Assembly (NCBI GenBank): GCA_022616415.1
Contig: JAKEEU010000332.1
Coordinates: forward strand, 1,367 to 65,366
Reading direction: 5' to 3'
Length of the DNA: 64,000 bases
DNA from: Candidatus Zhuqueibacterota bacterium
Lineage (GTDB): Bacteria; Zhuqueibacterota; Zhuqueibacteria; Zhuqueibacterales; Zhuqueibacteraceae
Made by a program: the position numbers and the translations under genes. Each line of letters begins with the position of its first letter. Positions within the stretch are counted from its first letter, which is position 1. Below the pieces are notes generated by a model. The model was not told the DNA's origin, did not search any database, and worked only from the letters and a program-made list of their open reading frames with translations. This document shows positions 7,071-61,152 of this stretch, piece by piece.

Positions 7071-7271
7071 ACGTTCGTAGTTGCGCCTTTAGGCGCTGAA
7101 GTTATATTGCACCATGAAATCCTCATGGACAGCAAAAGCCTGTTTTAAGCGCGAACTCGTACGTGGCGAGTTGTTCCAATTTGTCCCCGGCAGGCCAAAG
7201 CTCTTCGGCATGCGCCCGTAGCTTCGTTATGATCTCCTCGATACCGTTATCCATGCTGATCATGGCTAAGA

Positions 7272-7559
7272 TCAAACCGCGGTCGCATTTTTAGTCACAC
7301 AGCGCAGCAACTCGTCGTGCAACTGGCGTGTCAACCGGGCGCCGTCATAATTGTGGAAAGCGCCATCGACGGCAGGCGGCGCGATGCCGCCGCAGCGAAA
7401 CTCTTCCACTAATTGCAGCAGCGCCCGTTGAATGCTCTCGGCATCGTCGGGATCGACGACGATTCCAAATCTGCGATCTTGCAAAAGCTGTGTCACTAAT
7501 CCTGGCAAACAAAAATCTGCATCGGTATATCGCGAACTTTTGCTCTCTACTCCAGACAT
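7272..7559 (-). pseudogene. Possible C-terminal remnant of a GT1-type glycosyltransferase, or a small hypothetical ORF
   Basis: A 95-aa ORF that resembles only the last part of a glycosyltransferase (GIVVDPDDAESIQRALLQLVEE). There are only 73 nt to the upstream gene, so a full-length GT cannot fit. Confidence 0.3.
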
Positions 7560-7632
7560 TTTACGCCTGCCTCGCTCCGCCTTTCCTTAAATTTCATAAT
7601 GATGCGGGGCGGAGAAGGCGATACTACGAACG

Positions 7633-8955
7633 CTACCAACAAATTCCGGCATAATTCGCTTGCGTACGGCCGTCGTCCGGCAATATGCGCACGAGATCGA
7701 TGACGATTTGATCCGGACGCCGTTTCTCCAAAATATTCGCAAACTCCGGGTTGTTATTGCCGATGACGAGGATTTCCGCAAAATCAACGACTTCGTCAAA
7801 CGATTTGCGCAACAGGCACGACAAGTGCGGAATTTCCTTTTCGATGTACTCTTTGTTGGCGCCGGTCAAGCGCGCGAGCGAGACGTCGCGGTCATAAATC
7901 TTGATCTCGTACCCCTTGCCGAGCAGCGTTTCGGTGAGCTGAACGAGCGGGCTTTCGCGCAGATCGTCGGTGCCGGCTTTGAAGCTCAAGCCGAGGATGC
8001 CGACTTTTTTCTTTTGCGGCGCGACGATCATTTCCACGGCGCGCTGTATTTGCAGATCATTGCTTGGCAGAATCGCTTCCAACACCGGCAGTTGCACGTC
8101 TTGCATCTTCGCTTCGTACAAAATCGCCCGCAGATCTTTAGGCAGGCACGAGCCGCCAAAAGCGAAGCCGGGCCGCAAATAAGCTTTCGAAATATTGAGC
8201 TTGGCATCTTTCACAAAAATGTCCATCACTTGATGGCTGTCAATGCCCAAGGCTTTGCAAAGCGTGCCGATCTCGTTGGCGAAAGCGATCTTCAGCGCGT
8301 GGAAAGCGTTGCTGGCATATTTAATGGATTCGGCGACTTCAATGCTCGTGAGATAAATCGGCGCCTCGATGCCTTCGTAAAGCGCCTGCGCCTTTTCTGC
8401 GGTGGCGCGGTCGCGGCTGCCGATGAGCGTATACGGCGGCGCATAAAAATCTTTCACCGAGCTGCCTTCACGCAGAAATTCCGGATTGAAGCACAGCCCA
8501 AAGCCGTGACATAATTTTTTTCCGGACTCCTGTTCGAGCAGCGGCAGGATGATGCGATTCACCGTGCCCGGCAAAACCGTGCTGCGCAGCACGATGAGGT
8601 GATAATCTCTTTTGTGCCGCAAAACTTGTGCGATGCTGCGGCAAACGCTGATGAGGTTGTGCAAACTCAGCGAGCCGTTGCCGTTGCCGTTGCCCGGCGT
8701 GCCCAAGCAAATCACGCTAAGCTCGGTGTTGAGAACAGCGTCTTTTACATCTTCGGTGGCGCGCAGACGGCCGGCGCGGACATTCTCCATCACCATATCG
8801 CCGATTTCCTCCTCGACGATCGGGCTTTTGCCGTCATTGAGCAGCGCCACTTTTTGCGGATTAATATCTACTCCAACAACCTCGTGCCCATTCCTGGCAA
8901 AACAGGCCGAGGTCACCGTGCCGACGTAACCTAGACCCAAAATACTGACCTTCAT
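7633..8955 (-). CDS. algD: GDP-mannose 6-dehydrogenase (NDP-sugar dehydrogenase family)
   Basis: MKVSILGLGYVGTVTSACFARNGHEVVGVD Rossmann start, GFAFGGSCLPKDLRA catalytic Cys motif, LGLSFKAGTDDLRESP, and a C-terminal ...AGICW. It appears collinear with Pseudomonas AlgD as I remember that sequence. Start set at the ATG at 8955 rather than the track start 9024. Confidence 0.8.
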   Translation of the reverse strand: MKVSILGLGYVGTVTSACFARNGHEVVGVDINPQKVALLNDGKSPIVEEEIGDMVMENVRAGRLRATEDVKDAVLNTELSVICLGTPGNGNGNGSLSLHNLISVCRSIAQVLRHKRDYHLIVLRSTVLPGTVNRIILPLLEQESGKKLCHGFGLCFNPEFLREGSSVKDFYAPPYTLIGSRDRATAEKAQALYEGIEAPIYLTSIEVAESIKYASNAFHALKIAFANEIGTLCKALGIDSHQVMDIFVKDAKLNISKAYLRPGFAFGGSCLPKDLRAILYEAKMQDVQLPVLEAILPSNDLQIQRAVEMIVAPQKKKVGILGLSFKAGTDDLRESPLVQLTETLLGKGYEIKIYDRDVSLARLTGANKEYIEKEIPHLSCLLRKSFDEVVDFAEILVIGNNNPEFANILEKRRPDQIVIDLVRILPDDGRTQANYAGICW

Positions 8956-35371: not shown

Positions 35372-35472
35372 GCCGCATTTCGCAGATAAAGACGATTCTC
35401 GGAAAGAAAAAGATTGTGGCGAGGAACCCAATAATCCAACAATCCATTGCTCCAACACTCCATATTGAAAAA

Positions 35473-38112
35473 ATGCCCGGTCAAAAAGTTCGCTTACTTA
35501 AAATTTTCATCGCCTCGCCGAGCGACGTGAGGCCCGAACGCGAAAAAGCTCGTGAAGAAATCATCAGCCTGCGGCTACTGGCGCAAAAGCATGGTTTTGA
35601 TTTGCAGCCTGTCGGCTGGGAGGCGAACGCCACGCCCGGTGTTGGCCGCCCCCAAGAGCGGATCAACCCGCTCGTGCGCGAATGCGATTTATTCATTGGC
35701 ATCCTGTGGCGGAAATTCGGGGCGCCCACAGGCGAAGCTGAGGCCGGCACGCTGGAAGAATTCAATCTCGCCCGCGAACGTTTCGTGAAAGAACGTGCGC
35801 CCGAAGTCATGCTCTATTTCCGCGAAGTGCATCCCGATTTTCTGGAGGATGCCGGCCCGCAATTGCAAAAAGTTTTGGATTTCAAAAAGCAAATTGAAGA
35901 AAGCCGTCTCGCGCTCTATTGGCAGTACCGCGACCCGGAGCATTTTGCCGCATTGCTGCGCCAGCACGTCACCGACTGGTTGTTGAAATTGGTTCCTACT
36001 CCCGATGACCGCCCGATCAGTGCTACTGCCACTGCAACTGCTACTGCCACTGAAGCTCCCCCTCTCTCCGCCTTTGCCGAACACCTCGAATACTGCCGTG
36101 CCGAATTGCAAAAAACCGCTCGCCCACTCAGGCTTCGGACGTTGACACTGCCACCGCTCTTTCTCGAAGAAGTCGATGCCGAACGGCCTCGCAACATGAA
36201 AGTGAGCAACGCCGTCAAAATGTTTCCCCGCTTGCTCATTCTCGGCGAGCCTGGCGCGGGCAAAACCACTTCGCTCAAAAAGCTCGCCGCCGAATATGCC
36301 GTGTGGCGCGGTGAAGGCAAGGAACCCGGTCTCAACGAGCCGGAAGATTTTAACCTGCCGATTTTTGTCGATCTCTCCGCTTATCCAACTGTATCTGCCG
36401 GCGATTCCAAACATGGCTTGTGGCGGCTCATCACCGCGAGCGTGCGTGGTGTTCATGATGTTGACGTGCGCAAACGCATTGCTGCCGGTGGGTGCTTGCT
36501 GTTGTTTGATGGCCTCAACGAAGTTGGCGAAGCGTATGACGAAGTCGTTTATCAAATTCGTCATCTCGTGAATACCGAAGCGCCGCAGAATCGTTTCGTC
36601 GTCACCTGCAGGCCCGGTGTGTATCGCGACGAGCTGCGCAACGAGTTTGTCGCGTTTCAATTGGAGCGCCTGAGCAGTTTCAACGCTTCGAAAGTTTTGG
36701 AAATTGAAATCGGCGCGGAGAAAGCGCAAGCCGCGTGGAAAGGTTTGGACGAATACACCCGCGATCTCTGCCGCAATCCGCTCATGCTCACTCTGCTCGC
36801 CGACGAGCTTCGTGCCAGCGACACGCCGCCGCAAAACCGCGCCCAACTCTTCGACCGCTTTGTGGATCGCTATTTGAGCGAATGGGCCCGCGTCAAAGGC
36901 GCCGGCGCGGTGCGCGTGGAAAAAGAAATTCTCTCCGCGTTGGCGTGGCGACTCGGCACCAACCGTACATTGCTTTCCGCCGATGAAGCCGCTGCCGCAA
37001 TGTCTGCCCGGCTTACCGAATTACAAAACAAAAAGGAAGCTCGACTCGATCTCAATGTTGACGAGCTCAATCGTGAATTTCTCCACCACGGCCTGTTGCG
37101 TGAAAGCGCCGGCCAAACCGGCTTCTTCCATCAAGCCGTGCAGGAATATTTCTTTGCACGTGAGGTGGCGTTGCATCAGTCAATGGAATATGTTTTGAAG
37201 CACGTTAACGATCCGGAGTGGGCGGAGGTTTTGGTGTTTGTGTGCGGTTTGGCTGAGGATGCGACGGAGGTTGTGCGGGAGGTGATGAAGGTGGACCCGT
37301 ATTTGGCGGCGAGGTGTACCACGAATGCAAAGGAAATAAATGGGAAAGTTGTTGATGAACTAGCTTTAGTATTGATCCAAAATCTCAAGATGAAATTTGA
37401 TTCCGGTATTTGGCTTGGAAAACTATACCAGGAAATGCTTGCCGTTTTATCCATCGAATCAAAAACCTATACTCAAAAATTGTCAGACCTTTTTCATCGT
37501 GCTTATAATCAGGAACCTCATGCACTGCATGAATTCGCCCGTCTGCTTATCGGCATGTATATTCCTGAAAAAGTTATTCCTATATTCGAACCCATAATAA
37601 ATGAAAAATCTGATGATTTCCGACTAATTGGATGGCTAGGAGTGGCGCTGCGTATGGTTAACAATTTTGAAAAATCTTTCGCATATTTCAAAAAGTGTTT
37701 AGAATTGGCTCCTGAAGATGCGTGGATTTGGTTCAATTTGGGTTTCGTTTATCAAGACGTAGAAAACTATGAACAAGCAGAATTTTGCTTTCGTAAAGCC
37801 ATTGAATTAAATGCAAAAATACCCTGGCCGTACACTCATCTCGGCTTCACCTTGTTGCAGAAAAAGGATTATGACGGTGCCGTACAACAATATCAGAAAG
37901 CTATTAGCTTAAATTGGGAATACAGCTGGCCACATATTGGTTTGGCAGAAATTTATCAAGAATTTCTTAATGAGCCCGAAAAGGCAATCGAAGAATATAA
38001 AATTTCTCTTCAATTTGAAAAGCGGCCCTTTTTATTACCTGAACCTATATTCGCACTTGCCCGCGCCCTCGAAGCCACCGGTCGCACCGCCGAAGCCCGG
38101 CAGCGTTATTAA
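35473..38112 (+). CDS. STAND NTPase: DUF4062 (TIR-like) N-domain, NACHT and TPR repeats. It ends at an in-frame TAA with 23 more TPR-like codons downstream.
   Basis: KIFIASPSDVRPEREKAREEI...DLFIGILWRKFG (DUF4062 pattern), Walker A LILGEPGAGKTTSLKKL, Walker B CLLLFDGLNEV, and C-terminal TPR units (WFNLGFVYQDVENYEQAEFCFRKAIELN...). Confidence 0.8.
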   Translation: MPGQKVRLLKIFIASPSDVRPEREKAREEIISLRLLAQKHGFDLQPVGWEANATPGVGRPQERINPLVRECDLFIGILWRKFGAPTGEAEAGTLEEFNLARERFVKERAPEVMLYFREVHPDFLEDAGPQLQKVLDFKKQIEESRLALYWQYRDPEHFAALLRQHVTDWLLKLVPTPDDRPISATATATATATEAPPLSAFAEHLEYCRAELQKTARPLRLRTLTLPPLFLEEVDAERPRNMKVSNAVKMFPRLLILGEPGAGKTTSLKKLAAEYAVWRGEGKEPGLNEPEDFNLPIFVDLSAYPTVSAGDSKHGLWRLITASVRGVHDVDVRKRIAAGGCLLLFDGLNEVGEAYDEVVYQIRHLVNTEAPQNRFVVTCRPGVYRDELRNEFVAFQLERLSSFNASKVLEIEIGAEKAQAAWKGLDEYTRDLCRNPLMLTLLADELRASDTPPQNRAQLFDRFVDRYLSEWARVKGAGAVRVEKEILSALAWRLGTNRTLLSADEAAAAMSARLTELQNKKEARLDLNVDELNREFLHHGLLRESAGQTGFFHQAVQEYFFAREVALHQSMEYVLKHVNDPEWAEVLVFVCGLAEDATEVVREVMKVDPYLAARCTTNAKEINGKVVDELALVLIQNLKMKFDSGIWLGKLYQEMLAVLSIESKTYTQKLSDLFHRAYNQEPHALHEFARLLIGMYIPEKVIPIFEPIINEKSDDFRLIGWLGVALRMVNNFEKSFAYFKKCLELAPEDAWIWFNLGFVYQDVENYEQAEFCFRKAIELNAKIPWPYTHLGFTLLQKKDYDGAVQQYQKAISLNWEYSWPHIGLAEIYQEFLNEPEKAIEEYKISLQFEKRPFLLPEPIFALARALEATGRTAEARQRY

Positions 38113-46775: not shown

Positions 46776-47666
46776 ATGGGATTCACAAAAATGGTCAAGC
46801 CCCAATATCCGCCGCGATTATGGACTTTGGCGGGATTTCCCGGATCGGGAAAGAGCACCTTCGCCGCGCAAATGCGCCCTCCCCTGCTTGCTATCGACGC
46901 GGATCGCCGGTTCTCTGAAGTTCTCAACCTGGCGCAAGGCGAGGTTTATTCGCTCAGCGAAGCTGCCGCTGATAATGCCAACACCGACAAAATCGTGTCA
47001 TTGTTAAAGGCCAATATGCCGGGCAGTGAGGTCAACACGATTATCGTTGATAGTCTGAGCGCGGTCATCAGCCCTTTGGTGACGCAGGCGATTATAGACA
47101 ACGACGCCGGGCGCAATCGCAATCGCGCGGCGGCGTTCAAGAACAAAGCCCTGGCGATGCGACAACTCCAGGACGCGGTCACGTGTTGGGGCAAAGACGT
47201 GCTGTGGATTTATCATCTCAAAGAAGGCCGTGATGGGCAAGGGAGTAAAGTTATCCGCACGACCGTGCCGGAAACCGAGCTGGAAAGATTGAAACGTTCG
47301 ATCAACCTGCAATTGGAAATCGTGCAGGACGGAGAAAGACGCGGCATTAAAGTGATTTGGGCCAGACAAGGGCGGAATCAAATAACCTTATGGGATGAAA
47401 CCGGCAGATGGCTGGGAATGCCGGAGCGCATAGAAGCCGCAGTTTATGGCGGGTTGCCGGACCAGGAAAAAGCTGAAAACAGCATTCCCAAACAATTCGC
47501 TAATATCGAGGCGGCAATTGTCTGGGGAATGTCCCTGGGCGTTTTCCCAGACGCCACCAGCGCCCGGCAAGCTTATGATGAAATCAAGCGGAAGAACAAA
47601 CCCAAGACCGCCACGGAGATGGCGTCTTATTGGACGGCTGAAGTGTTGAGGCGGCGGAAAAAGTAA
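46776..47666 (+). CDS. AAA_24 / Sak4-like P-loop ATPase (phage-type RecA-fold protein)
   Basis: Walker A LAGFPGSGKSTFA, Walker B-like NTIIVDSLSAV. RBS GGAG is 9 nt upstream. Confidence 0.55.
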   Translation: MGFTKMVKPQYPPRLWTLAGFPGSGKSTFAAQMRPPLLAIDADRRFSEVLNLAQGEVYSLSEAAADNANTDKIVSLLKANMPGSEVNTIIVDSLSAVISPLVTQAIIDNDAGRNRNRAAAFKNKALAMRQLQDAVTCWGKDVLWIYHLKEGRDGQGSKVIRTTVPETELERLKRSINLQLEIVQDGERRGIKVIWARQGRNQITLWDETGRWLGMPERIEAAVYGGLPDQEKAENSIPKQFANIEAAIVWGMSLGVFPDATSARQAYDEIKRKNKPKTATEMASYWTAEVLRRRKK

Positions 47667-47817: not shown

Positions 47818-48150
47818 ATGAAACTGGAAGACTATTTTGACTTTCTCTCGCCCGATGACATTCGCCTCAAAGGGCACCGGATCGGCATTGATAATGTGCT
47901 CGCTTATTACCTGCAAGGATACACGCCGGAGGAAATTGCCGTGCATCTTCCCCCTTTGAGTTTGGAGAAGATTTACGCCACGATCACTTATTACCACCAT
48001 AAGCGCGCCGAAGTGGATGCCTATCTCGCGCGGCTGGCGGCCTGGCGGGAACAACGATATCAGGAAGCGCAGGCCAATCCTTCGCCTGTCGTGCAACGGC
48101 TGCGCGCCATAAAAGCAGAACGGCAGAAAGCGCGAATGGGGCTGCAATGA
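47818..48150 (+). CDS. DUF433-domain protein (antitoxin-like HTH)
   Basis: IRLKGHRIGIDNVLAYYLQGYTPEEIAVHLPPLSLEKIYATITYY. Its stop overlaps the start of the next gene. Confidence 0.65.
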   Translation: MKLEDYFDFLSPDDIRLKGHRIGIDNVLAYYLQGYTPEEIAVHLPPLSLEKIYATITYYHHKRAEVDAYLARLAAWREQRYQEAQANPSPVVQRLRAIKAERQKARMGLQ

Positions 48151-48506
48151 AGATGTGTTTCCTTTTGGACGAAAACATCTCGCCGCGAGTCAAAGCGGCA
48201 TTGCTTCGTCTGAATCCGACAATTGACGTGTTGCGTGTTGGTGATCCAGGCACGCCATCATTGGGCACACTTGATCCGGAAATCCTGCGCTTCCTTGAGG
48301 TGTCGCAGCGGCTTTTAATCACCGACAATCGCATCAGCATGCCGGCGCATATTGAAGCACATTGGGCTGCCGGCGGCCATATTGGGGGATTGTTTTGGGT
48401 TCGCCCGGAAACCGCGATTGGCCGGCTGGCAGAAGAGCTGCACCTCATTTGGGAGACGAGCGAAGCCGAGGAGTGGATCGATCGGCTGGATTGGATTCCG
48501 TTCTAA
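48147..48506 (+). CDS. DUF5615-family PIN-like protein (toxin-like)
   Basis: MCFLLDENISPRVKAALLRL...LITDNR. This is the usual partner of DUF433. Confidence 0.6.
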   Translation: MKMCFLLDENISPRVKAALLRLNPTIDVLRVGDPGTPSLGTLDPEILRFLEVSQRLLITDNRISMPAHIEAHWAAGGHIGGLFWVRPETAIGRLAEELHLIWETSEAEEWIDRLDWIPF

Positions 48507-48592
48507 AAAAATTTTCGAGGCGCTCGCTTCGCTCGCGCCAAACAAATGATCGAATAATAAAATAATCAAATGACTCAAATAACCAAAGGCTC

Positions 48593-48699
48593 GATGATTG
48601 TCACGAGCGCACCGCACGCACGTAGAGGCTGCTGCCAATGCCGTGGCGATCGCAACTGCCGTAGCCGAAATCGACATACCACGCACGCCCAGCGCTTTC
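48593..48699 (-). repeat. DGR variable repeat 1 (VR1), 3' end of the TIR-DUF1566 gene
   Basis: It aligns without gaps to TR 51236-51342. By my count, 13 mismatches lie in the body plus 1 near the stop codon and 1 at the 5' edge. Every one is at a plus-strand T of TR, which is a coding-strand A. Confidence 0.9.
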
Positions 48700-49686
48700 C
48701 TTATCCGCCGTCCAAATCCACGTCTGTTGGCGATCAAACACCGGATCGATATACAAATTGCCGTGCTCTTTCGGCTCCATCAGTGACATCGCCTCTTCCA
48801 AAGTTGGCAAACGCCAATCCGTGACGCCGCCATGTTTGTTGGCGTTCAACTGGCGAATATAAGTTTCAGCCTCTTTGAACGGCACATACTTTTCCGAGCC
48901 GCCTTTCTGCCAAGTCAACCCCGTCGCGTGATCAATCACCAACGCCGCACCGGCCCTCTCGACGCTTTCATATTCATGCTGAATGCCTTTTCCCGACGAA
49001 TTCTTGTATTGGTCGTAAAAATTTTTCTCGCGCAGCATCTGTTGAACTGCTTCGGCAGACAAAGGATTGATCGGCGTGTGGCGTAGTTGGATAATGGTTG
49101 GACGAGCCGGCGGGGTTGGCTTGGAAACCGGCGGTTTGCTTTTGGGCGGCGCTGCTTTTGGTCCATTCTGCGGCGGCTTGGGTACGGAGGGCGACGCGGC
49201 TTGTGACAGGCGGGCATGAATGACGCCGGCGAGTTCCGACTCAGTATCCAAATCTTTGGCGCTGGTTTGGGCCAATTGCAAGGCGCGCAACAATTCCCGT
49301 ACGCCCTGCTCGCGGTCGGAAAAGTCGATATAAGCCGTGTTCGCCATAATCGGCGGCACCGGCGTGCCGTCAATCGGACATGGAACGATCAATTTGCGCA
49401 ACGAGATGGCGTTGGTCCACTCGAGCTTGACCCAATGGGAACCCTTCGCCGCTTTTGACCACACCAGCAGCAGGGTATTACACCACTCCAACGCATCGTT
49501 AATGCGCTCGGGCAAGTTATCGCCGCCGCGGATGCCGGCGTGATCCACCCACACTTCGGCACCGGCGTCCGCCAGCGTCTTTTCAAGGCGGCGTACCAGC
49601 GCTTTGTCTTCCCACGCATGGCTGATGAAAATGCGCGGGGGCTCAGTTTTTGGCGGTTTGGCCAACTTCGTTCTCCGGGTATTCAA
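48601..49686 (-). CDS. TIR domain, Pro-rich linker and DUF1566 (CLec-fold) protein; DGR target 1
   Basis: RIFISHAWEDKALVRRLEKTLADAGAEVWVDHAGIRGGDNL...LLLVWSKAAKGSHWVKLEW (TIR). Linker PKPPQNGPKAAPPKSKPPVSKPTPPARP. C-terminal domain TGLTWQKGG...DWRLPTLEEAMSL...WIWTADKESAGRAWYVDFGYGSCDRHGIGSSLYVRAVRS (DUF1566). Confidence 0.85.
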   Translation of the reverse strand: MNTRRTKLAKPPKTEPPRIFISHAWEDKALVRRLEKTLADAGAEVWVDHAGIRGGDNLPERINDALEWCNTLLLVWSKAAKGSHWVKLEWTNAISLRKLIVPCPIDGTPVPPIMANTAYIDFSDREQGVRELLRALQLAQTSAKDLDTESELAGVIHARLSQAASPSVPKPPQNGPKAAPPKSKPPVSKPTPPARPTIIQLRHTPINPLSAEAVQQMLREKNFYDQYKNSSGKGIQHEYESVERAGAALVIDHATGLTWQKGGSEKYVPFKEAETYIRQLNANKHGGVTDWRLPTLEEAMSLMEPKEHGNLYIDPVFDRQQTWIWTADKESAGRAWYVDFGYGSCDRHGIGSSLYVRAVRS

Positions 49687-51166
49687 TCATCATCGCGATC
49701 AAGCGTTGTTTCGTGTGGCGCAATTCATGGCCGGTTTCTTCCACCACCACGACCGGCAGGCGCTGCGACTTGAGTTTGCTCAACACGGCGCTGATTTGCT
49801 TTTTCGGAAAGCCGCACGCCGGCGAAAAGCCGCGCCACTTTGCATTTAGGTTCAGACCGGCGGCTTGGTGCAGAACCTCCGCCTGCCAGCCGTAGGCTTC
49901 AAAATAGCTTCCCACCTGAACAAGACACAGATGATGGGGAAATGTTCGCAGCAGCCAGCGAATCTGCTGCCGCAAATACCGCGTGCGCCGCAGGGCCTGA
50001 TCCAATCTAACGATTTTATGTTTTTTTCGCAAAAAGAATTTTTGCAGAAACACGTGTTGTTGGAATAATTTTTCCACCAGCCGGCCGGTCTGCGCGTGGC
50101 GGAAAAGGCCGAGATAGGAATTGATCGTGGCGAGCGTCTTTTCCAACGTCTCGAGATCGAAGCGATAAGCCGTGCAGCTTTCGGTGTGGATGGCCAACTT
50201 TGGCCGAAGCTGCCGCAGTTTTTCCTTCAAATTGCCCACGTTGCGCCGGCGCACCAATTGATAACCCGGCCGCACGATACAACCCGCAAAGTCGATGCCG
50301 CCGTGCACCGGTCCGATTTGCATCATCTTTTCATGGACTTCCAACTGCAGCGTGGTTTTGAGAAAATCTCGAATCGCCTGCTGCCATTGCGCCAACTGCC
50401 AGCGGTGGCGCGCCAGCAAAATGAAATCATCGACGTAGCGCAAATAGAAGCGGCATTTGAGCACGTGCTTGACGAATTGATCGAGCGCATTCAAATAGAC
50501 GTTGGCAAAAAACTGGCTGGTGTAATTGCCGATGGGCAATCCGCAGCCTGGCGGCGCGCCAAAGAGCGTTTTGTGCGGCGGAATGCGATGGCGCAAGCCC
50601 TCAGCGTCTTGCAGCTCGTAATCTTGGGTGGGATCGTGAAATACCAGCACGCGCACCAGCCACAGCAGCTCGTGCGGGTGCGGGCAGTGTTTGGCCAGCA
50701 TCTCAAACAGCAACTGCCGGTTGATGGTCATGAAAAAATTCTTCACGTCCATTTTGAGAAAAAAGGCGGGGCGCTTGCCATTGGCGGTGAGGCGGCGCAG
50801 CAGCGTTTGCAGGGTTTGCGCCGCAGCCAATGGACCCTTGTCGGAGCGACAGGCATAAGAATGGTGGATGAAAATTTTCTCCCACACCGGTTCGAGATGG
50901 CTGCAAAGCAGGTGGTGGACGACGCGGTCACGAAACGCGGCGGCAAACACCTCCCGCGCCTTCGGCTTGCTGGTATAAAAGCACACCGAAGTCGAAGGCT
51001 GGTAACGCCGCTCCCGCAGCTCGTCGACGAGCGCCACGAGGTTCTCTTCGTGGTTCTGCTCGAAATCCAGCGCGCTCGGCTTGTTGCGTTTGTTGCGGCG
51101 ACACGCCAGATACGCTTTGTACACCTGCGGGAAATCGAACAAGACTGACCGGTCACTTAAGGCCAT
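49643..51166 (-). CDS. DGR reverse transcriptase with a C-terminal MutS-domain-I-like extension
   Basis: RT motifs FFLKMDVKNFF, the DGR hallmark LPIGNYTSQFFANVYLNALDQF, and FYLRYVDDFILLA. 507 aa. The tail reads VQVGSYFEAYGWQAEVL...GFPKKQISAVLSKLKSQRLPVVVVEETG. Confidence 0.9.
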   Translation of the reverse strand: MALSDRSVLFDFPQVYKAYLACRRNKRNKPSALDFEQNHEENLVALVDELRERRYQPSTSVCFYTSKPKAREVFAAAFRDRVVHHLLCSHLEPVWEKIFIHHSYACRSDKGPLAAAQTLQTLLRRLTANGKRPAFFLKMDVKNFFMTINRQLLFEMLAKHCPHPHELLWLVRVLVFHDPTQDYELQDAEGLRHRIPPHKTLFGAPPGCGLPIGNYTSQFFANVYLNALDQFVKHVLKCRFYLRYVDDFILLARHRWQLAQWQQAIRDFLKTTLQLEVHEKMMQIGPVHGGIDFAGCIVRPGYQLVRRRNVGNLKEKLRQLRPKLAIHTESCTAYRFDLETLEKTLATINSYLGLFRHAQTGRLVEKLFQQHVFLQKFFLRKKHKIVRLDQALRRTRYLRQQIRWLLRTFPHHLCLVQVGSYFEAYGWQAEVLHQAAGLNLNAKWRGFSPACGFPKKQISAVLSKLKSQRLPVVVVEETGHELRHTKQRLIAMMIEYPENEVGQTAKN

Positions 51167-51206
51167 TGCACGAGGAAAGATTTGCGCCTAAAAGTGACCG
51201 GTCAGT
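51144..51206 (-). promoter_or_regulatory. 15-bp inverted repeat bracketing the RT start codon, in the TR-RT spacer
   Basis: ACTGACCGGTCACTT (51144-51158) is the exact reverse complement of AAGTGACCGGTCAGT (51192-51206). The 33-nt loop contains the RT ATG (51164-51166). Confidence 0.6.
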
Positions 51207-51235
51207 AGCTTTCCAAACACGCTCGAACAGCGGAT

Positions 51236-51342
51236 GATGATTTTCACGAGCGCACCGCACGCACGTAGTTGTTGTTGCCAATGTCGTTGTGATTGCAATT
51301 GCCGTTGTTGAAATTGACATACCACGCACGCCCAGCGCTTTT
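51236..51342 (-). repeat. DGR template repeat (TR)
   Basis: A non-coding copy of the VR lying between avd and RT. In the VR frame it reads KSAGRAWYVNFNNGNCNHNDIGNNNYVRAVRS*, with 9 AAY codons. Confidence 0.9.
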
Positions 51343-51459
51343 GCCCCTCTACTTGTGGCCCGTCTTTTCGGGCCCACGTCCGGCCAATCCCGCTGGTGCA
51401 GGTATGGCCGCCGGCGAACTAATGCCCCGAGAGTCGGGGCGAGAGGGGTGCACAATCAT

Positions 51460-51864
51460 CTAATTGGCGCGCGCTTGCCCCGCACCGGTGTGCGAGGAAG
51501 ATTCTGGCCGTCCACTTTTTTGCAGCGTTGACTTCAGCCAGCCTTCGTTCTGCCGGCATAAGTCCACCACCTGATTCACACTATAGTGATACGAATCAAA
51601 ATTTGCAAAGGCTTTTTCTTCTTTGGCGATGCGCAAAGTGATTTTCAAATCTTCCAACAGCTCGCGCAGCTTTTCAAGTTGCGGCGCTTTCTCGGTCGCG
51701 TTGTTGGCGCGCACGATCTGGCGGAGCACCTCGTGCGAAAGCTGGCGCAGCTCCGTGCCGAGGCTGTATTTGTGGTAACGGCTGAAATGGCGCACGACCT
51801 TCTCGAAGTAAACGGTAAGATCGAAAGCCTTTTTGTAAATGGGAAGATGCTTGTATTGAGCCAT
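51460..51864 (-). CDS. avd: DGR accessory variability determinant (Avd; four-helix-bundle, 23S rRNA-IVS-protein-like)
   Basis: A 134-aa basic helical protein (LPIYKKAFDLTVYFEKVVRHFSRYHKYSLGTELRQLSHEVLRQIVRAN) immediately upstream of TR-RT. Confidence 0.8.
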   Translation of the reverse strand: MAQYKHLPIYKKAFDLTVYFEKVVRHFSRYHKYSLGTELRQLSHEVLRQIVRANNATEKAPQLEKLRELLEDLKITLRIAKEEKAFANFDSYHYSVNQVVDLCRQNEGWLKSTLQKSGRPESSSHTGAGQARAN

Positions 51865-52047
51865 GGCTATTCTCCGCGAGAATGCGAAGTCGGACTTGGT
51901 CAGAGGAATTTTCTAAATTTGAACGATCGTTGTGACCAAGTCCGACTTCACTTTTTCCAAAAAATTTTCGAGGCGCTCGCTTCGCTCGCGCCCAAGCAAA
52001 TGATCGAATTATAAAATAATCAAATGACTCAAATAATCAAAGGCTCA

Positions 52048-52153
52048 ATGATTGTCACGAGCGCACCGCACGCACGTAGATGACGTCGCCAAAGCCGTGG
52101 CGACTGCAATAGCCGAGGACGAAATTGACAGACCACGCACGCCCAGCGCTTTC
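52048..52153 (-). repeat. DGR variable repeat 2 (VR2), 3' end of the NTPase-DUF1566 gene
   Basis: It aligns without gaps to TR 51237-51342. By my count, 15 body mismatches plus the same 2 edge mismatches seen in VR1. All are at TR coding-strand adenines. Confidence 0.9.
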
Positions 52154-53911
52154 TTTGTCCGCCGTCCAAATCCACGTCTGTTGGCGATCAAACAACGGAT
52201 CGATGTACAAATTACCCTGCTTCGTTTCGCGTTCCATCAACGACATCGCTTCTTCGAGAGTCGGCAAGCGCCAGTCGTTGAAACCGGCGTACTTTTTCGC
52301 GTTCAATTCTTTAACGTAATCCTGCGCTTGCTCGAAAATCAACTGGTCAGGTGAGCCGGATTGTTGCCAACTCAAACCGGTGGTTATATCAAAGACTAAA
52401 GTTTCCTTGTCTCGGACATAAGGCACATAAACATGCGGAACTCCTCGTCCACTTTTGTTCCAGGATGAATCAAAGAAGCCATAGCGTTTGATCATTTCCT
52501 GAACTTGCGATGAAGATAACGTATACGGCTCACGGCGGAACGACCGAGTTGGCACACCGGCAAGCTGCACCAGCCCAAGCAAATCAGCTTTTGACAGATC
52601 GAGCGGCTTTGGCATATTGGCTTGTACCATCTCCCACAAAAATCGCTTCATCTGATCCGTCCAGCTCAATTCCGGCCGTTCCGCCGCCGGCAGCGCGAGA
52701 AACCGCTTGACCGATAAATATTCCATAATCGAGCGATGGGCGAACTTGAAATTGTCTTCGGCATCGCGGTTGAGCAAGGAGCGGCTGGTGAGCTTCCAGC
52801 CTTCCAGTTTAATCCCAAACTTTTGTGCCAGCGGCTCAATGGCCTCATACGGCAGACGCTCTTCCTTCTTCTCTTGGCGCTGCACAAACAATTCGATGGC
52901 GAGGCGCTCGCAAAATTCGCGCAGCGGTTCTTTTTGCAATCCTTCCACGCGGCCCACTTCGCGATCTAACCACCCTTCCACCGCTTCTTCGTACAACTGA
53001 AACGAATAGCTAAAATCACGACCGCTGGCGAGAAAATTATCAATCAGCGCCAGCAGCATTGGTCGCACGGTCAACTGAGGAATTTTGCCTGCCACTTGGC
53101 GCGCCTGCCGACGTTTGCGCCAGCGCCAGAACCGATAGCGCAGTTGTAAATACTTTTTCACTTGCGCGTCATCAAAGGGCGAGAGATAAAGCTTGTGAAA
53201 AAAGTACTCACCCGTTTCTTTCGGCCCGATGGTGCCCAATTTGACCACGCCGGTGCGGCCCGGCTCTTCTTCGGCGCGCGGGAAAAACTGGGTGCGGCAG
53301 GTGATGAGCACGCGGCGAAACTCGCGGGTCAGGTCGCACAAATCCAACACCCGCTGGCGGTGGTCGACGATGGCGAGCGTGTCTTCGTCCAACGCATCGA
53401 GAAAGAGCACGGTGTCGGATTTTGCGGCAACGGCTTTGATGCGGGCATCGGCATCTTTAATGCCCAGCGGGATCACTTGCAACTGAAACGGTTTACGGAA
53501 CCGGCGCAGGTAGCGGGCGTAGTAATTCAACTGGAAGGCGGTTTTGCCCATGCCGGAGTCGGCGAGCAGGAGCAGATACTTGAATTCGGTGTCTTCGTCG
53601 AGCAAACGGTCGATGGCGGAAAACAAATCTTCGCGCGAGGCATACACGCCACGAATTTCCGGGCTTTGGGCGGGATCGACGCTCTGGCAATACGGCCGGA
53701 GATAATAGCGCATCGCGCGCTCGATATCTTCCGGCGTATAGAGCGTCGCACCGAGTCGCTTCCGCAACGAGCGGCGGTCGTGCCATTGTTTGAGCTTCGC
53801 CAGCAAGCCCAGCAGGCCGCCGCCCCCAATGATGCTCAAAATGGTATCGAGATGATCGAGCCAGGTTTTGGGATCAAAAAGCAGATTGGTGAGGGTGGTA
53901 TCAGGCGGCAT
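52055..53911 (-). CDS. NACHT-like P-loop NTPase with an N-terminal hydrophobic helix and C-terminal DUF1566 (CLec-fold) domain; DGR target 2
   Basis: Walker A LLLLADSGMGKTAF, Walker B VLFLDALDED, an N-terminal ILSIIGGGGLLGLLAKL, and a C-terminal TGLSWQQSG...DWRLPTLEEAMSL...WIWTADKESAGRAWSVNFVLGYCSRHGFGDVIYVRAVRS. Confidence 0.85.
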   Translation of the reverse strand: MPPDTTLTNLLFDPKTWLDHLDTILSIIGGGGLLGLLAKLKQWHDRRSLRKRLGATLYTPEDIERAMRYYLRPYCQSVDPAQSPEIRGVYASREDLFSAIDRLLDEDTEFKYLLLLADSGMGKTAFQLNYYARYLRRFRKPFQLQVIPLGIKDADARIKAVAAKSDTVLFLDALDEDTLAIVDHRQRVLDLCDLTREFRRVLITCRTQFFPRAEEEPGRTGVVKLGTIGPKETGEYFFHKLYLSPFDDAQVKKYLQLRYRFWRWRKRRQARQVAGKIPQLTVRPMLLALIDNFLASGRDFSYSFQLYEEAVEGWLDREVGRVEGLQKEPLREFCERLAIELFVQRQEKKEERLPYEAIEPLAQKFGIKLEGWKLTSRSLLNRDAEDNFKFAHRSIMEYLSVKRFLALPAAERPELSWTDQMKRFLWEMVQANMPKPLDLSKADLLGLVQLAGVPTRSFRREPYTLSSSQVQEMIKRYGFFDSSWNKSGRGVPHVYVPYVRDKETLVFDITTGLSWQQSGSPDQLIFEQAQDYVKELNAKKYAGFNDWRLPTLEEAMSLMERETKQGNLYIDPLFDRQQTWIWTADKESAGRAWSVNFVLGYCSRHGFGDVIYVRAVRS

Positions 53912-55947: not shown

Positions 55948-56217
55948 ATGAGTGAGACAATTAAAGCGATTTATAAAAATGGCATCATTGAGCCTGCTGA
56001 ACCATTAAAGATCGCCGAAGGCACTGAAGTTTATGTGGTTGTGCCTAAGACCACTAAATCTACGGCATATCGCACAGTTCTTGAGGAACTCAGAAGAGAG
56101 GGGTTTCTTGATTTTGATTCCCAGACCATCGCTCAGCCATTTTCCAAGCGCCGGCGTGGGCGTATTCAGGGTAAACCGGTGTCGGAGACTATTATTGAAG
56201 ATCGAGGGCCAAGATGA
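55948..56217 (+). CDS. DUF104/AF2212-type antitoxin (VapB-like)
   Basis: MSETIKAIYKNGIIEPAEPLKIAEGTEVYVVV is the canonical N-terminus of this antitoxin family. It overlaps the PIN gene start. Confidence 0.7.
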   Translation: MSETIKAIYKNGIIEPAEPLKIAEGTEVYVVVPKTTKSTAYRTVLEELRREGFLDFDSQTIAQPFSKRRRGRIQGKPVSETIIEDRGPR

Positions 56218-56675
56218 TCCATTATTTTGACAGTAGTGCAGTCGTTAAAATTTATCTTCAAGAAATTGGCAGCGATTGGGTTGAAACTGTCTGTTTACAA
56301 AATTCCGAGGGCGAAATAGGCATTTCGCAAATTGCCGGAGCCGAAGTGGTTGCTGCGATAAACCGGCGGCATCGTACTGGTGATATAGATGCCGCAACGT
56401 TAGAGACTGCCCTCGACGCATTTGAGAGTGATTTTTCTCGCTTCTTTGTCAGAATTCCTGTTTCGTTGGCGATTATTAGGCAAGCGATGAGACTCCTTCG
56501 ACGCCATCCCTTGCGTGGTTATGATGCTGTTCAATTGGCCACGGCCTTGGAGTGGGCAGATCGACTAAATGCATTTGGTTTAGCTAAACCAATTTTTGTC
56601 AGCGCCGATAACCTCCTGAATCAAGCAGCTATACAAGAAGGGTTGCAGACCGAAAATCCCAACGCTCATCCTTGA
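56214..56675 (+). CDS. vapC: PIN-domain toxin (VapC family)
   Basis: MIHYFDSSAVVKIYLQE (first acidic residue), LRGYDAVQLATAL, and FVSADNLLNQAA. Confidence 0.75.
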   Translation: MIHYFDSSAVVKIYLQEIGSDWVETVCLQNSEGEIGISQIAGAEVVAAINRRHRTGDIDAATLETALDAFESDFSRFFVRIPVSLAIIRQAMRLLRRHPLRGYDAVQLATALEWADRLNAFGLAKPIFVSADNLLNQAAIQEGLQTENPNAHP

Positions 56676-58356: not shown

Positions 58357-61152
58357 ATGGACGATAGAATGATCGAGCCGCTTATTGAACGCCGCGTCGA
58401 GAAAACGGAGAAGCTCTCTCCGCTCTTCGCGGCCAATTGGCCTGAAATCATCACGCAGGCGGCTTCCCGCTCCAACGGCGCGAGTTTTTATCGCTGCGCG
58501 CTGCAAGTGAATACGCCGTTTCAAGACAATTTCAAAGGCTTTGACTCCCGCCATCGTCGCCGCACGGCGACTCATCAGCGTGACTATGCGCTGGCGCTGG
58601 CGAAAGCTTGCAAAAAAATCGGCATCGATGTGATCGGACTATGTGACCATAACAGTGTGGATTACATCGAAACCGTTCGCCACGAACTCGGGCAGGAAGG
58701 CATCATTGTTTTTCCCGGCTTCGAGGTGGCGAGCACCGAAGGCATTCATATCTTATGCTTGTTCAGCCCGCACGCTAATGTTAAAGATCTCGATCATTTG
58801 CTCACCGAATTGGACTTGCCCCCGAAAGAACGCTGGACGAACGGCGAGGGGCAGGCACCGCGACAATCGAAACGCTCGTTCCCACAAATTTTGGAACGTG
58901 TGCAACGCAATCGCGAAGGCATTTGTATCGCGGCCCATGTTGATCGCGAAAACGGCTTGCTCGATGAATGCTCCAAAACCACACGCGTACAATATTTTAC
59001 CGATCCCAGTCTGCTTGCGGCCCAAATTGCCGGCCGGCGGGAAGATTTGACGGATTTCTACCGCAAAATCGTCAACGGTGAACTCGATCATTATCGCCGG
59101 CAACAATCCATCGCGCTGATCAACTGCCTAGATGTTTACAATTTGAAAGACTTGAACCAGCCCGTATGCAGCACCTGGATCAAAATGTCCTCGCCGTCCA
59201 TCGAAGGCTTGTGGCAGGCGTTTCTCGATCCGGATTCGCGGCTGCGCCTGCTCTCGGAGGAACCTCCCAAACCTCACGCCGAATTGGTCGCCATCACTTG
59301 GCAGGGCGGCTTTCTGGATGGCGGCATGATTCATCTCAACGAAAATCTCAATTGTCTGATCGGCGGCCGCGGCGCTGGCAAATCCACCGTCATCGAAAGC
59401 TTGCGCTACGTTTTGGATCTCAAGCCGATTGGCGAGGAGGTTCGCCGGTCGCACGCCGGAATTTTGCAACAGGTGCTGCGCACGGGCACGCATGTCTCTT
59501 TGCTGGTGCGGTCATATTTTCCTTCGCCTTGTCATTATCTCATCGAGCGCACGTATCCCGAAGCGCCGGTGGTGCATGACGAAGAGGGCAACGAGCTGCC
59601 CATTCACCCCGGTGAGATTTTGCCCGGCGTGGAAATTTTTGGCCAGCACGAGATTGCGGAGATTGCAAAAAATCCGGCGAAGCAATATCAGCTTTTGCGC
59701 CGCTTCCGCAACGTCGAAGCGGTCGAGCTGGAAGCGACGAAACAAGAGCTATGTCGCGCTCTCGAAGCCAATCGCCTCGAGCTGGCAAAGGTGGAAAAAG
59801 AGATGGAGGCCGTCGAAGAGAAACTCAGTCGCTTGCCCGCGGTCGAAGAGAAACTGCGGCGTTACAAGGATCTCGGCATTGAAACGAAATTGCAAGAACA
59901 ATCCCTGCTCGCGCGTGAAGAATCCCTCGTCAAGGCCAGCCGCCAGCGCTTGCCGGCGTTCAAAAAAGCGCTCGAGTCGCTGCATCAAATTTTGGCGCAA
60001 AGCCTCACTCGTCGTGACGCTGCCGCCATGGCCGATTTGCCCAACGCCGATCTCATGGAACGTCTTGACGACGCGCTTGCCAACCTCGAGGAGCAGGCGC
60101 AGAACAGCGTGGATGAGATGACGAATGCGCTGAAGCAAGCCGAAGACGAGCTCTTGGGTATTTCCGGGGAATGGGAAAAACGGCGGCAGGCCAAGCGCAG
60201 CGAGTACGAAAAGACACTCCGCGAACTGCACAAAGAGGCGATTGACGGCGCTGATTTCATGAAGCTGCGAAAAGAGTACGAAATGCTCGTACCATTGCAA
60301 AAAGAGGCGCACAAATTAAAGCAACAATGCGACGATTTACTGGCGCAACGTCACCAGCTTTTGGAGGAATGGGAAGCGGCCAAATCGCAACTATTTGAAT
60401 TCGACCAGGAAGCCGCCGACAAAATTTCAGAGGAGTTGGCCGGACGCGTGCGGGCAAGGGTGGTGAGGGAGTTTGACTTGACTCCGCTGATCGAGCTGTT
60501 GAAAAGACACATTAAAAATTTAAAAACGCCCCCACTTTATAATCGTCTGCACGAAAAAAATTTGATTTCGTTGGCTGACTTCATTCAGCACGTCCGTGAG
60601 GGCAAAGAGACGCTACGCGATATTTATGGCTTGCAGGATAAAACCGCGGCGGCGCTGGCAGGCCTCTCCGAAAAAGCTTTGCGCGAAATGGAAGAGCTGG
60701 AGCTGCCGACCACGATTCGTCTCGAGTTGAACACAGCACTCCAAGGCCGGGCGCCGAATTGGAAGGAGATGCAGGAGCTTTCCACCGGCCAAAAAGCGAC
60801 GGTGATTTTGCTGCTGCTGTTTTTGGAAAGCGAAACGCCGTTAGTGATCGACCAGCCGGAAGACGATCTCGACAACAGCTTCATTGCGGAGACCATCATC
60901 CCCACACTGCGCCAGGAGAAACGCCGGCGGCAATTTCTTTTTGCGACGCACAACGCCAATCTGCCGGTGTTGGGTGACGCCGAGCTGATCGTGACACTCG
61001 AGGCTTCCGGCGAAGGCGAGACCGGTTCTGCAAAAATTAACGACGAGCATATTGGCTCGATTGACCTGGCTTCGGTTAAATTCCAGGTGGAGCAAATTTT
61101 GGAGGGCGGCAAGCAGGCGTTTGAGATGCGGCGGGCGAAGTATGGGTTTTGA
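58357..61152 (+). CDS. PHP-domain phosphoesterase fused to an SMC/Rad50/RecF-like ABC ATPase with a long coiled-coil insert
   Basis: PHP-like motifs GLCDHNSV, FPGFEVASTEGIHILCLF and IAAHVDREN. Walker A LIGGRGAGKST (~59362-59388). About 330 aa of E/K/L/Q-rich coiled coil. Signature LSTGQKA, Walker B LVIDQPEDDLD, and FATHNANL. Confidence 0.75.
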   Translation: MDDRMIEPLIERRVEKTEKLSPLFAANWPEIITQAASRSNGASFYRCALQVNTPFQDNFKGFDSRHRRRTATHQRDYALALAKACKKIGIDVIGLCDHNSVDYIETVRHELGQEGIIVFPGFEVASTEGIHILCLFSPHANVKDLDHLLTELDLPPKERWTNGEGQAPRQSKRSFPQILERVQRNREGICIAAHVDRENGLLDECSKTTRVQYFTDPSLLAAQIAGRREDLTDFYRKIVNGELDHYRRQQSIALINCLDVYNLKDLNQPVCSTWIKMSSPSIEGLWQAFLDPDSRLRLLSEEPPKPHAELVAITWQGGFLDGGMIHLNENLNCLIGGRGAGKSTVIESLRYVLDLKPIGEEVRRSHAGILQQVLRTGTHVSLLVRSYFPSPCHYLIERTYPEAPVVHDEEGNELPIHPGEILPGVEIFGQHEIAEIAKNPAKQYQLLRRFRNVEAVELEATKQELCRALEANRLELAKVEKEMEAVEEKLSRLPAVEEKLRRYKDLGIETKLQEQSLLAREESLVKASRQRLPAFKKALESLHQILAQSLTRRDAAAMADLPNADLMERLDDALANLEEQAQNSVDEMTNALKQAEDELLGISGEWEKRRQAKRSEYEKTLRELHKEAIDGADFMKLRKEYEMLVPLQKEAHKLKQQCDDLLAQRHQLLEEWEAAKSQLFEFDQEAADKISEELAGRVRARVVREFDLTPLIELLKRHIKNLKTPPLYNRLHEKNLISLADFIQHVREGKETLRDIYGLQDKTAAALAGLSEKALREMEELELPTTIRLELNTALQGRAPNWKEMQELSTGQKATVILLLLFLESETPLVIDQPEDDLDNSFIAETIIPTLRQEKRRRQFLFATHNANLPVLGDAELIVTLEASGEGETGSAKINDEHIGSIDLASVKFQVEQILEGGKQAFEMRRAKYGF

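Follow-up and report, generated by a model that had tools for sequence, protein, structure and literature searches.

A TIR domain fused to a retroelement-diversified lectin-fold domain in a Zhuqueibacterota genome, a candidate hypervariable bacterial immune receptor

Can one short bacterial protein join a recognition surface that is rewritten by a retroelement directly to a TIR effector domain, and if so, what might such a protein do? The question is raised by a gene in a 64,000-nucleotide (nt) stretch of DNA from a Candidatus Zhuqueibacterota bacterium (assembly GCA_022616415.1, contig JAKEEU010000332.1, positions 1,367 to 65,366 of the forward strand), which we refer to as the window. The gene belongs to a diversity-generating retroelement (DGR) cassette and encodes an N-terminal TIR domain and a C-terminal C-type-lectin-fold (CLec) domain; we call it TIR-CLec. 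An original prediction, made from the letters of the window, had described it as DGR target 1, a TIR domain fused through a Pro/Lys-rich linker to a hypervariable DUF1566 domain, and had read it as a minimal sensor-effector. As a prediction, this sensor-effector reading is well supported by our analysis, and the TIR-CLec family is probably a hypervariable bacterial immune receptor.

Domain architecture and the TIR catalytic motif

The gene and its parts are located as follows.

48601-49686, minus strand: TIR-CLec gene (DGR target 1), from the open reading frame (ORF) list and Pfam matches to TIR_2 and Lcl_C; 361 amino acids (aa) from the first TTG.
49288-49632, minus strand: TIR domain, aa 19-133, from Pfam, PDB profile matches, Foldseek and homologue conservation.
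49072-49194, minus strand: Pro/Lys-rich disordered linker, about aa 165-205, from AlphaFold2 confidence and family entropy.
48604-49059, minus strand: C-type-lectin-fold domain of the Lcl_C/DUF1566 class, aa ~210-361, from Pfam, AlphaFold2, Foldseek and profile alignment.

Both domains are identified by strong matches far over the Pfam cutoffs: TIR_2 (PF13676) covers aa 19-133 (E=6.3e-25, 88.5 bits versus a cutoff of 28), and Lcl_C (PF07603, the current name of DUF1566) covers aa 249-360 (E=1.3e-20, 74.3 bits versus 34.9). An AlphaFold2 model built on 88 homologues (mean predicted local distance difference test score (pLDDT) 88, predicted template-modelling score (pTM) 0.58) contains a TIR-type α/β domain at aa 18-135, two short helices, the linker, and a mixed α/β domain from aa 210 to the end. 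The pLDDT is 95-99 across the CLec domain and 53-62 in the linker, which has the highest entropy outside the variable region in the family alignment. With a pTM of just 0.58, no fixed orientation of the TIR relative to the CLec domain is predicted. Foldseek searches against the PDB return SPARTA TIR-APAZ, SARM1, PdTIR, BtpA and AbTir for the N-terminal half (probability 1.00 for SPARTA, SARM1, PdTIR and AbTir) and the C-terminal domain of Legionella Lcl (8q4e, probability 1.00) for the C-terminal half. In target 1, Pfam recognizes TIR_2 and Lcl_C alone, with the disordered linker between them and no central STAND nucleoside triphosphatase (NTPase) separating effector and sensor. The predicted fusion is thus borne out by Pfam, AlphaFold2 and Foldseek, and the two motifs quoted for its TIR part, FISHAWEDK and SHWVKLEW, are both present in the ORF translation.

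The gene start had been said to overlap the 3' end of the reverse transcriptase (RT) gene by 44 nt, which is correct for the first TTG. Another TTG lies in frame at 49665 and has a GGAG motif 7 nt upstream of it; starting there, the protein has 354 aa and the overlap is 23 nt. This TTG is also the start used by a public gene call (contig of GCA_974014315.1) and is likely the true one. Over the whole protein we found no hydrophobic segment, signal peptide or transmembrane helix (maximum 19-aa Kyte-Doolittle mean 0.79), so TIR-CLec is probably soluble and cytoplasmic. An identity as a surface adhesin was rejected, as the protein has no export signal and its N-terminal domain is an intracellular-type TIR.

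The putative catalytic glutamate, E89 (codon 49420-49422), lies in the motif S83-x-W85-V-x-L-E89-W90 (W85-V-K-L-E89). E89, W90 and S83 are present in 88/88 full-length homologues and W85 in 79/88, and no other part of the protein is as conserved as the TIR domain (mean column entropy 1.23 bits in the same 88 sequences). A profile search of the PDB yields PdTIR (3h16, 6e-12), BtTir (7uxr), AbTir (7uwg, 8g83), Cat1 and SARM1 as best matches, and W85 and E89 align with the equivalent Trp and Glu of PdTIR, BtTir and AbTir in the profile alignments. We take the glutamate aligned with E89 to be the catalytic residue of TIR NADases (E208 in AbTir, E642 in SARM1), with a Trp at position -4. The flexible BB-loop region coincides with a low-confidence AlphaFold2 segment (aa 52-55). 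The TIR domain of target 1 keeps the W-x-x-x-E catalytic motif and, judged from its sequence, its catalytic centre is intact, in line with the conserved Glu context noted earlier.

Template-directed variation of the lectin surface

The remaining cassette features that bear on the variable region (VR) are listed here.

48601-48699, minus strand: VR1, in TIR-CLec, from mismatches to the template repeat (TR); variable aa 337, 339, 341, 342, 344, 346-350 and 352-354.
49643-51166, minus strand: DGR RT, 507 aa, RVT_1 3e-15, with IGNYTSQ at 50513-50533 and YVDD at 50426-50437.
51244-51342, minus strand: TR, non-coding, between avd and RT, with 7 AAC and 3 AAT codons in the VR frame.
51460-51864, minus strand: bAvd accessory gene, PF22296 45.4 bits (cutoff 40), NF033474 3.6e-13, below its cutoff.
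52055-53911, minus strand: DGR target 2, a P-loop/STAND-like NTPase with Lcl_C, 618 aa, Lcl_C 9e-20, weak nSTAND3/AAA_16.
52055-52153, minus strand: VR2, in target 2, 16/16 mismatches at TR adenines.

In 5' to 3' order along the minus strand, the elements are target 2, bAvd, TR, RT and TIR-CLec, and we propose that TIR-CLec is the last cistron of an avd-TR-RT unit. Its co-transcription with avd-TR-RT is plausible, given that the RT and TIR-CLec ORFs overlap and that a consensus scan detected no terminator-like site on the minus strand of 48601-51166 (RT and target 1). The RT has the DGR-typical IGNYTSQ (aa 212-218, conforming to [I/L/V]GxxxSQ) and YVDD (aa 244-247) motifs.

We compared TR and VRs without gaps over a block of 99 nt that has the stop codon at its end and in which 28/99 TR positions are adenines. 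All 14 VR1 mismatches (hypergeometric P=1e-9) and all 16 VR2 mismatches (P=3e-11) fall at TR adenines. The earlier assignment of VR1 as a DGR variable region at the C-terminus of the protein therefore stands, but its extent, given as the last 26 codons, does not: the TR-homologous VR comprises 33 codons including the stop, 13 of them variable. The TR has 16 adenine-containing codons in the VR frame, corresponding to about 3e15 possible protein variants.

The 13 codons that differ from TR in VR1 or VR2 spread over aa 337-354, and their columns in the family alignment have an entropy of 3.37 bits versus 1.46 for the remaining CLec domain. These positions interleave with a near-invariant framework (W336, V338, F340, G343 and C345), and AlphaFold2 predicts strands at aa 334-339 and 344-349; the alternation is the pattern expected of β-strands with one face exposed and one buried. 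A phmmer search of the PDB with the single CLec sequence gave chance-level matches, and it took a profile built from 18 CLec domains to retrieve the solved C-terminal domain of Lcl (Lcl-CTD, 8q4e, E=5e-4). Lcl numbering corresponds to chain numbering + 236, an offset validated by the four lysines that the Lcl paper names, all of which land on lysines of the chain. In this alignment aa 341, 342, 346, 352 and 353 pair with Lcl K380, T381, K385, K391 and T392, which form or adjoin a positively charged upper surface binding sulfated glycosaminoglycans (PMC11162425). A location of the VR1 residues on the ligand-binding face of the CLec domain and not in its core, as had been anticipated, is supported both by the framework alternation and by the alignment to these glycosaminoglycan-binding residues. 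The invariant W291 of TIR-CLec aligns with Lcl W315 at the Lcl-CTD trimer interface.

Variation of this kind is seen between natural orthologues. We compared three pairs of proteins, the two members of each pair sharing a 90%-identity cluster; the window protein itself lies outside the clustered database. P0004 and P0122 have 11/12 differences in the last 27 aa, P0020 and P0127 (both annotated proteins from KSB1 metagenome-assembled genomes (MAGs)) have 6/6, and P0023 and P0129 have 10/11. Near-identical orthologues thus differ almost solely in the VR, which means that the TIR-CLec family is rewritten in nature with the TIR domain held constant; at the level of sequence, the comparison shows ongoing diversification in natural populations.

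Family distribution, module exchange and genomic context

A search of ~5.8 billion protein clusters (E<=1e-5) returned 1,893 matching proteins, the top match being 78% identical. At least 110 of the best 120 cluster matches, mostly 300-420 aa long, contain both PF13676 and PF07603, and the architecture is not rare. The named best matches come from 'candidate division KSB1 bacterium' MAGs, and the family sits mostly in MAGs of KSB1 and Calditrichota. In GTDB contigs, surveyed at one genome per species, we located 40 TIR-CLec genes at 36 loci, often in several copies per genome; they belong to KSB1, Zhuqueibacter among them, to Calditrichia, and to a small number of MAGs from Planctomycetota, Brocadia and Chromatiales. 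IMG/VR viral contigs contain no TIR-CLec gene and gave one weak CLec-only match; a phage origin was rejected on this result and on the chromosomal character of the flanking genes.

A DGR RT is found within 10 kb of 4/40 TIR-CLec genes, and of 3/20 when the gene has at least 5 kb on both sides. The proposed survey of RT adjacency thus places about 10% of copies near a DGR RT, and the cassette-embedded arrangement of the window is the minority state. Nine of the 40 TIR-CLec genes have a STAND-CLec gene no more than 10 kb away, usually directly upstream, and apart from it no gene family recurs around TIR-CLec in the 32 loci examined.

Ungapped TR/VR comparison under-calls matches (for example in L005), and pairs in the survey were called by gapped blastn with default scoring. 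Linked TR-VR pairs have their mismatches at adenines in 12/13 (L005), 11/11 (L002), and 14/14 and 18/18 cases (L029). The L002 TR (8389-8493; Zhuqueibacter pondensis MAG JAPDQK01) matches not only the VR of the adjacent TIR-CLec gene but, in trans, the TIR-CLec VRs of L006 (17/18 at A) and L003 (14/16) and several non-TIR VRs. Its matches amount to at least seven VRs over three contigs, in three TIR-CLec paralogues and in several CLec genes without a TIR; for a single DGR, a set of trans targets of this size would be unusual. The orphan TIR-CLec of L011 likewise matches the TR of L057 (11/12 at A). RT-unlinked TIR-CLec copies are thus still DGR targets.

Related cassettes keep an Avd-TR-RT(MutS_I) core, with a variable slot after the RT. 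TIR-CLec occupies this slot in L005 (STAND-CLec, Avd, RT, TIR-CLec) and in L002 (signal-peptide caspase-CLec at 5798-7630, Avd, RT, TIR-CLec). In L027, L030, L044 and L046 the post-RT gene has a Nuc_deoxyrib_tr-like N-terminus (a weak match, below cutoff), a long, Glu/Lys/Gln-rich, helical-looking stretch and a CLec domain, and in L057 it combines a multi-pass hydrophobic region with CLec. The upstream slot holds STAND-CLec, CHAT-nSTAND1-CLec (L041, 7940-10474) or the signal-peptide caspase-CLec of L002. Together, the sister cassettes give the impression that effector heads are shuffled as a set while the hypervariable sensor stays the same. That conflict-type effectors interchange on a constant hypervariable sensor argues that the TIR domain is the output module, and is the strongest contextual argument we have.

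The C-terminal region of the window RT matches MutS_I, a mismatch-binding domain (aa 408-480; 49727-49945, minus strand; Pfam 3.8e-6, above cutoff), and this region is kept in RTs or RT remnants of 14 related loci; Wu et al. (2018) reported MutS_I-like tails on just three RTs (PMC5758913). Target 2 has a Walker A motif, GMGKT, at aa 120 and a short N-terminal extension with no recognised effector domain. Ahead of the P-loop NTPase, aa 20-38 form a Gly-rich hydrophobic stretch (HLDTILSIIGGGGLLGLLA, Kyte-Doolittle mean 1.47). Target 2 may thus be a divergent STAND protein whose N-terminal effector is directed to the membrane.

Both VRs are followed by a shared flank.

48506-48600, minus strand: 3' flank of VR1, near-identical to the VR2 3' flank at 51959-52054, from repeat families D1, D4 and D6 and from alignment.

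The identity extends ~95 nt past both VR stop codons, well beyond the TR homology, and includes a GC-rich hairpin (GGCGC...GCGCC) followed by A4T7. The flank may be a retrohoming or termination element, or the trace of a duplication. We interpret it as neither a terminator nor a DGR cruciform but simply as a conserved flank, as the consensus scan did not call the hairpin and its fold is no better than that of shuffled sequences (z=0.15). A contig of Logan assembly SRR16971109 (L080) is 100% identical to window 48711-51988, RT included. Its breaks fit an assembly-graph break induced either by the repeat or by VR heterogeneity; we rejected them as evidence for heterogeneity, since both ends lie inside repeats shared by targets 1 and 2 and the repeat alone suffices.

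The cassette is flanked by chromosomal genes (DUF92, DUF4032, M28 peptidase, MurJ, RuBisCO-like protein and SpoU methylase). Convergent with TIR-CLec and immediately downstream of it lies a DUF433/DUF5615 (PIN-like) pair with a stop/start overlap (47818-48506, plus strand), probably a toxin-antitoxin module. It is adjoined by an AAA_24-family ATPase (46776-47666, plus strand), and the gene order is the same in the public contig L079; AAA_24 proteins are often found in phages and mobile elements. An 898-aa DUF4062-NACHT-TPR protein (35416-38112, plus strand), encoded about 10 kb away from the cassette, has an Avs/NLR-like architecture. On the opposite side of the cassette, a 931-aa AAA_21/SMC_N-type ATPase (58357-61152, plus strand) and a PIN-domain protein (56214-56675, plus strand) may be further defence or toxin genes.

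Proposed mechanism, alternatives and known systems

We lean towards the view that TIR-CLec is a soluble, cytoplasmic, single-chain receptor-effector, in which clustering by ligand switches on NAD+ cleavage by the TIR domain. The adjacent DGR (Avd-TR-RT) would rewrite the ~13 codons of the CLec binding face by adenine-specific mutagenic retrohoming and would thereby give the population many binding specificities. A variant that binds an invader-derived, probably multivalent ligand would have its lectin heads clustered, the clustered TIR domains would form composite active sites and cleave NAD+, and the infected cell would arrest or die. Four parts of this scheme are inferred: that the TIR is an NADase, that the ligand drives clustering, what kind of ligand it is, and that the protein acts in defence. 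The AlphaFold2 prediction contains no rigid interface between the domains (pTM 0.58, with a disordered linker), which favours clustering over allostery, and a single-chain model is favoured by the lack of such an interface, by the lack of a conserved partner gene and by the nearest structures being NAD+-depleting TIRs.

Several points weigh against this reading. TIR-CLec has no recognised oligomerisation or NTPase module by which its TIR domain could be kept silent and then triggered. If the CLec domain were a constitutive trimer like Lcl-CTD, simple ligand-induced proximity would be an inadequate trigger. The Lcl-CTD alignment behind the surface mapping is itself weak, though it agrees with the Foldseek fold match.

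TIR-CLec could instead serve as effector for target 2, the STAND-CLec protein of the same cassette, and be recruited into a complex whose oligomerisation is regulated by the NTPase. Targets 1 and 2 are written from one TR, target 2 offers a short N-terminal extension and no effector of its own that we could recognize, a STAND-CLec gene accompanies the 9/40 TIR-CLec genes mentioned above, and Kaur et al. (2021) described STAND-FGS proteins paired with separate TIR proteins via shared adaptor domains (PMC8195603). We nevertheless regard this arrangement as unlikely: 31/40 TIR-CLec genes have neither a STAND neighbour nor another conserved neighbour, targets 1 and 2 have no detectable adaptor domain in common besides CLec, and VR1 and VR2 have diverged independently, so the two proteins would see different ligands.

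A Thoeris-like pathway, in which the TIR domain makes a nucleotide second messenger (of the cyclic ADP-ribose (cADPR) isomer or His-ADPR type) for a distantly encoded effector, appears improbable to a similar degree. ThsB proteins are stand-alone sensor TIRs, as the TIR of target 1 would be, and there is a weak likeness to them: PF08937 scores 21.0 bits versus a cutoff of 21.2, several PADLOC ThsB profiles match, and the NCBIfam Thoeris type III model ThcB4 matches at 1.7e-6 (27 bits, far under its cutoff of 220). With PF08937 and ThcB4 both below threshold, target 1 does not qualify as a ThsB-family TIR under these models. Moreover, no ThsA-like gene (SIR2, SLOG or Macro) adjoins TIR-CLec in any of the 32 loci or occurs among the window ORFs around the cassette scanned with Pfam, and the best structural matches, SPARTA TIR-APAZ and SARM1, are NAD+-depleting TIRs.

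A non-immune role, with the protein acting as an adjustable sensor in a pathway of regulation, kin recognition or development, would suit the housekeeping genes around the locus (MurJ, RuBisCO-like protein, SpoU) and the reading of multidomain cyanobacterial DGR variable proteins, TIR-like ones included, as regulatory-pathway tuners (Vallota-Eastman et al., 2020; PMC7517822), but is very unlikely given that the swapped N-terminal modules are all typical conflict effectors (TIR, caspase/CHAT, deoxyribosyltransferase-like, STAND), that genomes hold several dispersed, independently diversified paralogues, and that toxin-antitoxin and NLR-like genes lie nearby.

Parts of the receptor-effector reading have precedents. 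Kaur et al. described NTPase-based conflict systems in which FGS/CLec domains are linked to DGRs and TIR and DRHyd are among the N-terminal effectors, and explicitly proposed the analogy to hypermutating immune receptors (PMC7159879; eLife 2021, PMC8195603). DGR loci with two targets and with STAND-CLec proteins, of which some contain TIR domains, and a CHAT+TIR+CLec target were described by Dore et al. (2024, PNAS; PMC10907252), and cyanobacterial two-domain variable proteins with TIR-like N-termini by Vallota-Eastman et al. (2020; PMC7517822). DUF1566-class DGR targets were treated as surface proteins by Wu et al. (2018; PMC5758913). The statement in the original prediction that DGR-diversified CLec domains on STAND/NLR-like proteins had been described is therefore accurate (PMC8195603, PMC10907252). 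Its view that the TIR-CLec fusion is little characterised holds in part: our literature searches found no description of a TIR-DUF1566 protein family and no experimental test of any DGR-linked TIR, but TIR-containing DGR targets and the sensor idea have been published (PMC7517822, PMC8195603, PMC10907252).

Like the DGR-diversified STAND-CLec/FGS 'antigen sensors' (PMC8195603; clade 5D loci in PMC10907252), TIR-CLec has a cytoplasmic, C-terminal CLec VR written by Avd and RT and an N-terminal conflict effector, TIR being among theirs; two-target cassettes are typical of these systems, and target 2 of the window is of their type. TIR-CLec differs from them in having no NTPase between effector and sensor, in the class of its CLec domain (Lcl_C/DUF1566 versus FGE-sulfatase) and in its hosts (KSB1/Calditrichota versus Chromatiales or cyanobacteria). 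The cyanobacterial 'grafted' TIR-like proteins (PMC7517822) and the CHAT+TIR+CLec target of Thiohalocapsa DGR 2 (PMC10907252) also place a TIR N-terminal to a DGR-diversified CLec domain, are mostly predicted to be cytosolic and include remote paralogues. Those cases are survey listings without family-level analysis, catalytic-residue check or surface mapping, and they belong to another lineage and CLec subfamily. With category 'd' DGR targets (DUF1566/DUF823/Fib_succ_major; Legionella LdtA; PMC5758913), TIR-CLec shares the Pfam class of the VR domain and the position of the VR at the extreme C-terminus, but category 'd' proteins are described as lipoproteins or adhesins of the surface that carry Ig-like or fimbrial extensions, whereas TIR-CLec has no export signal and carries a predicted intracellular NAD+-dependent enzyme domain. 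Finally, the stand-alone TIR NADases and sensors AbTir, PdTIR, SPARTA TIR-APAZ and ThsB have the same TIR fold, W-x-x-x-E motif and BB-loop-like flexible segment, yet none of them has a hypervariable sensor domain rewritten by a retroelement.

The novelty of TIR-CLec is modest, as a DGR-diversified lectin acting as an intracellular antigen sensor and TIR-bearing DGR targets had both been published. Its value lies in being a minimal, testable example rather than a conceptual surprise, and our survey adds that the family is large, mostly RT-unlinked and still diversified. Both the ligands of bacterial intracellular DGR lectins and an anticipatory, adaptive-like immunity based on DGRs are experimentally undemonstrated so far, and most published candidates are large NTPases or multi-protein ternary systems. 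The soluble 354-aa TIR-CLec protein offers a tractable handle, with a predicted NAD+-loss readout, an invariant Glu to mutate and a 13-codon programmable face, and it is a natural scaffold for engineered 'binder-triggered NADase' switches. More tentatively, we put forward as a possibility that KSB1/Calditrichota bacteria maintain a genome-dispersed repertoire of TIR-lectins, all continually rewritten from one DGR template, as an anticipatory, antibody-like intracellular immunity in which clustering would directly activate the TIR NADase without an NTPase or adaptor. If true, this dispersed repertoire would be the simplest known hypermutating immune receptor.

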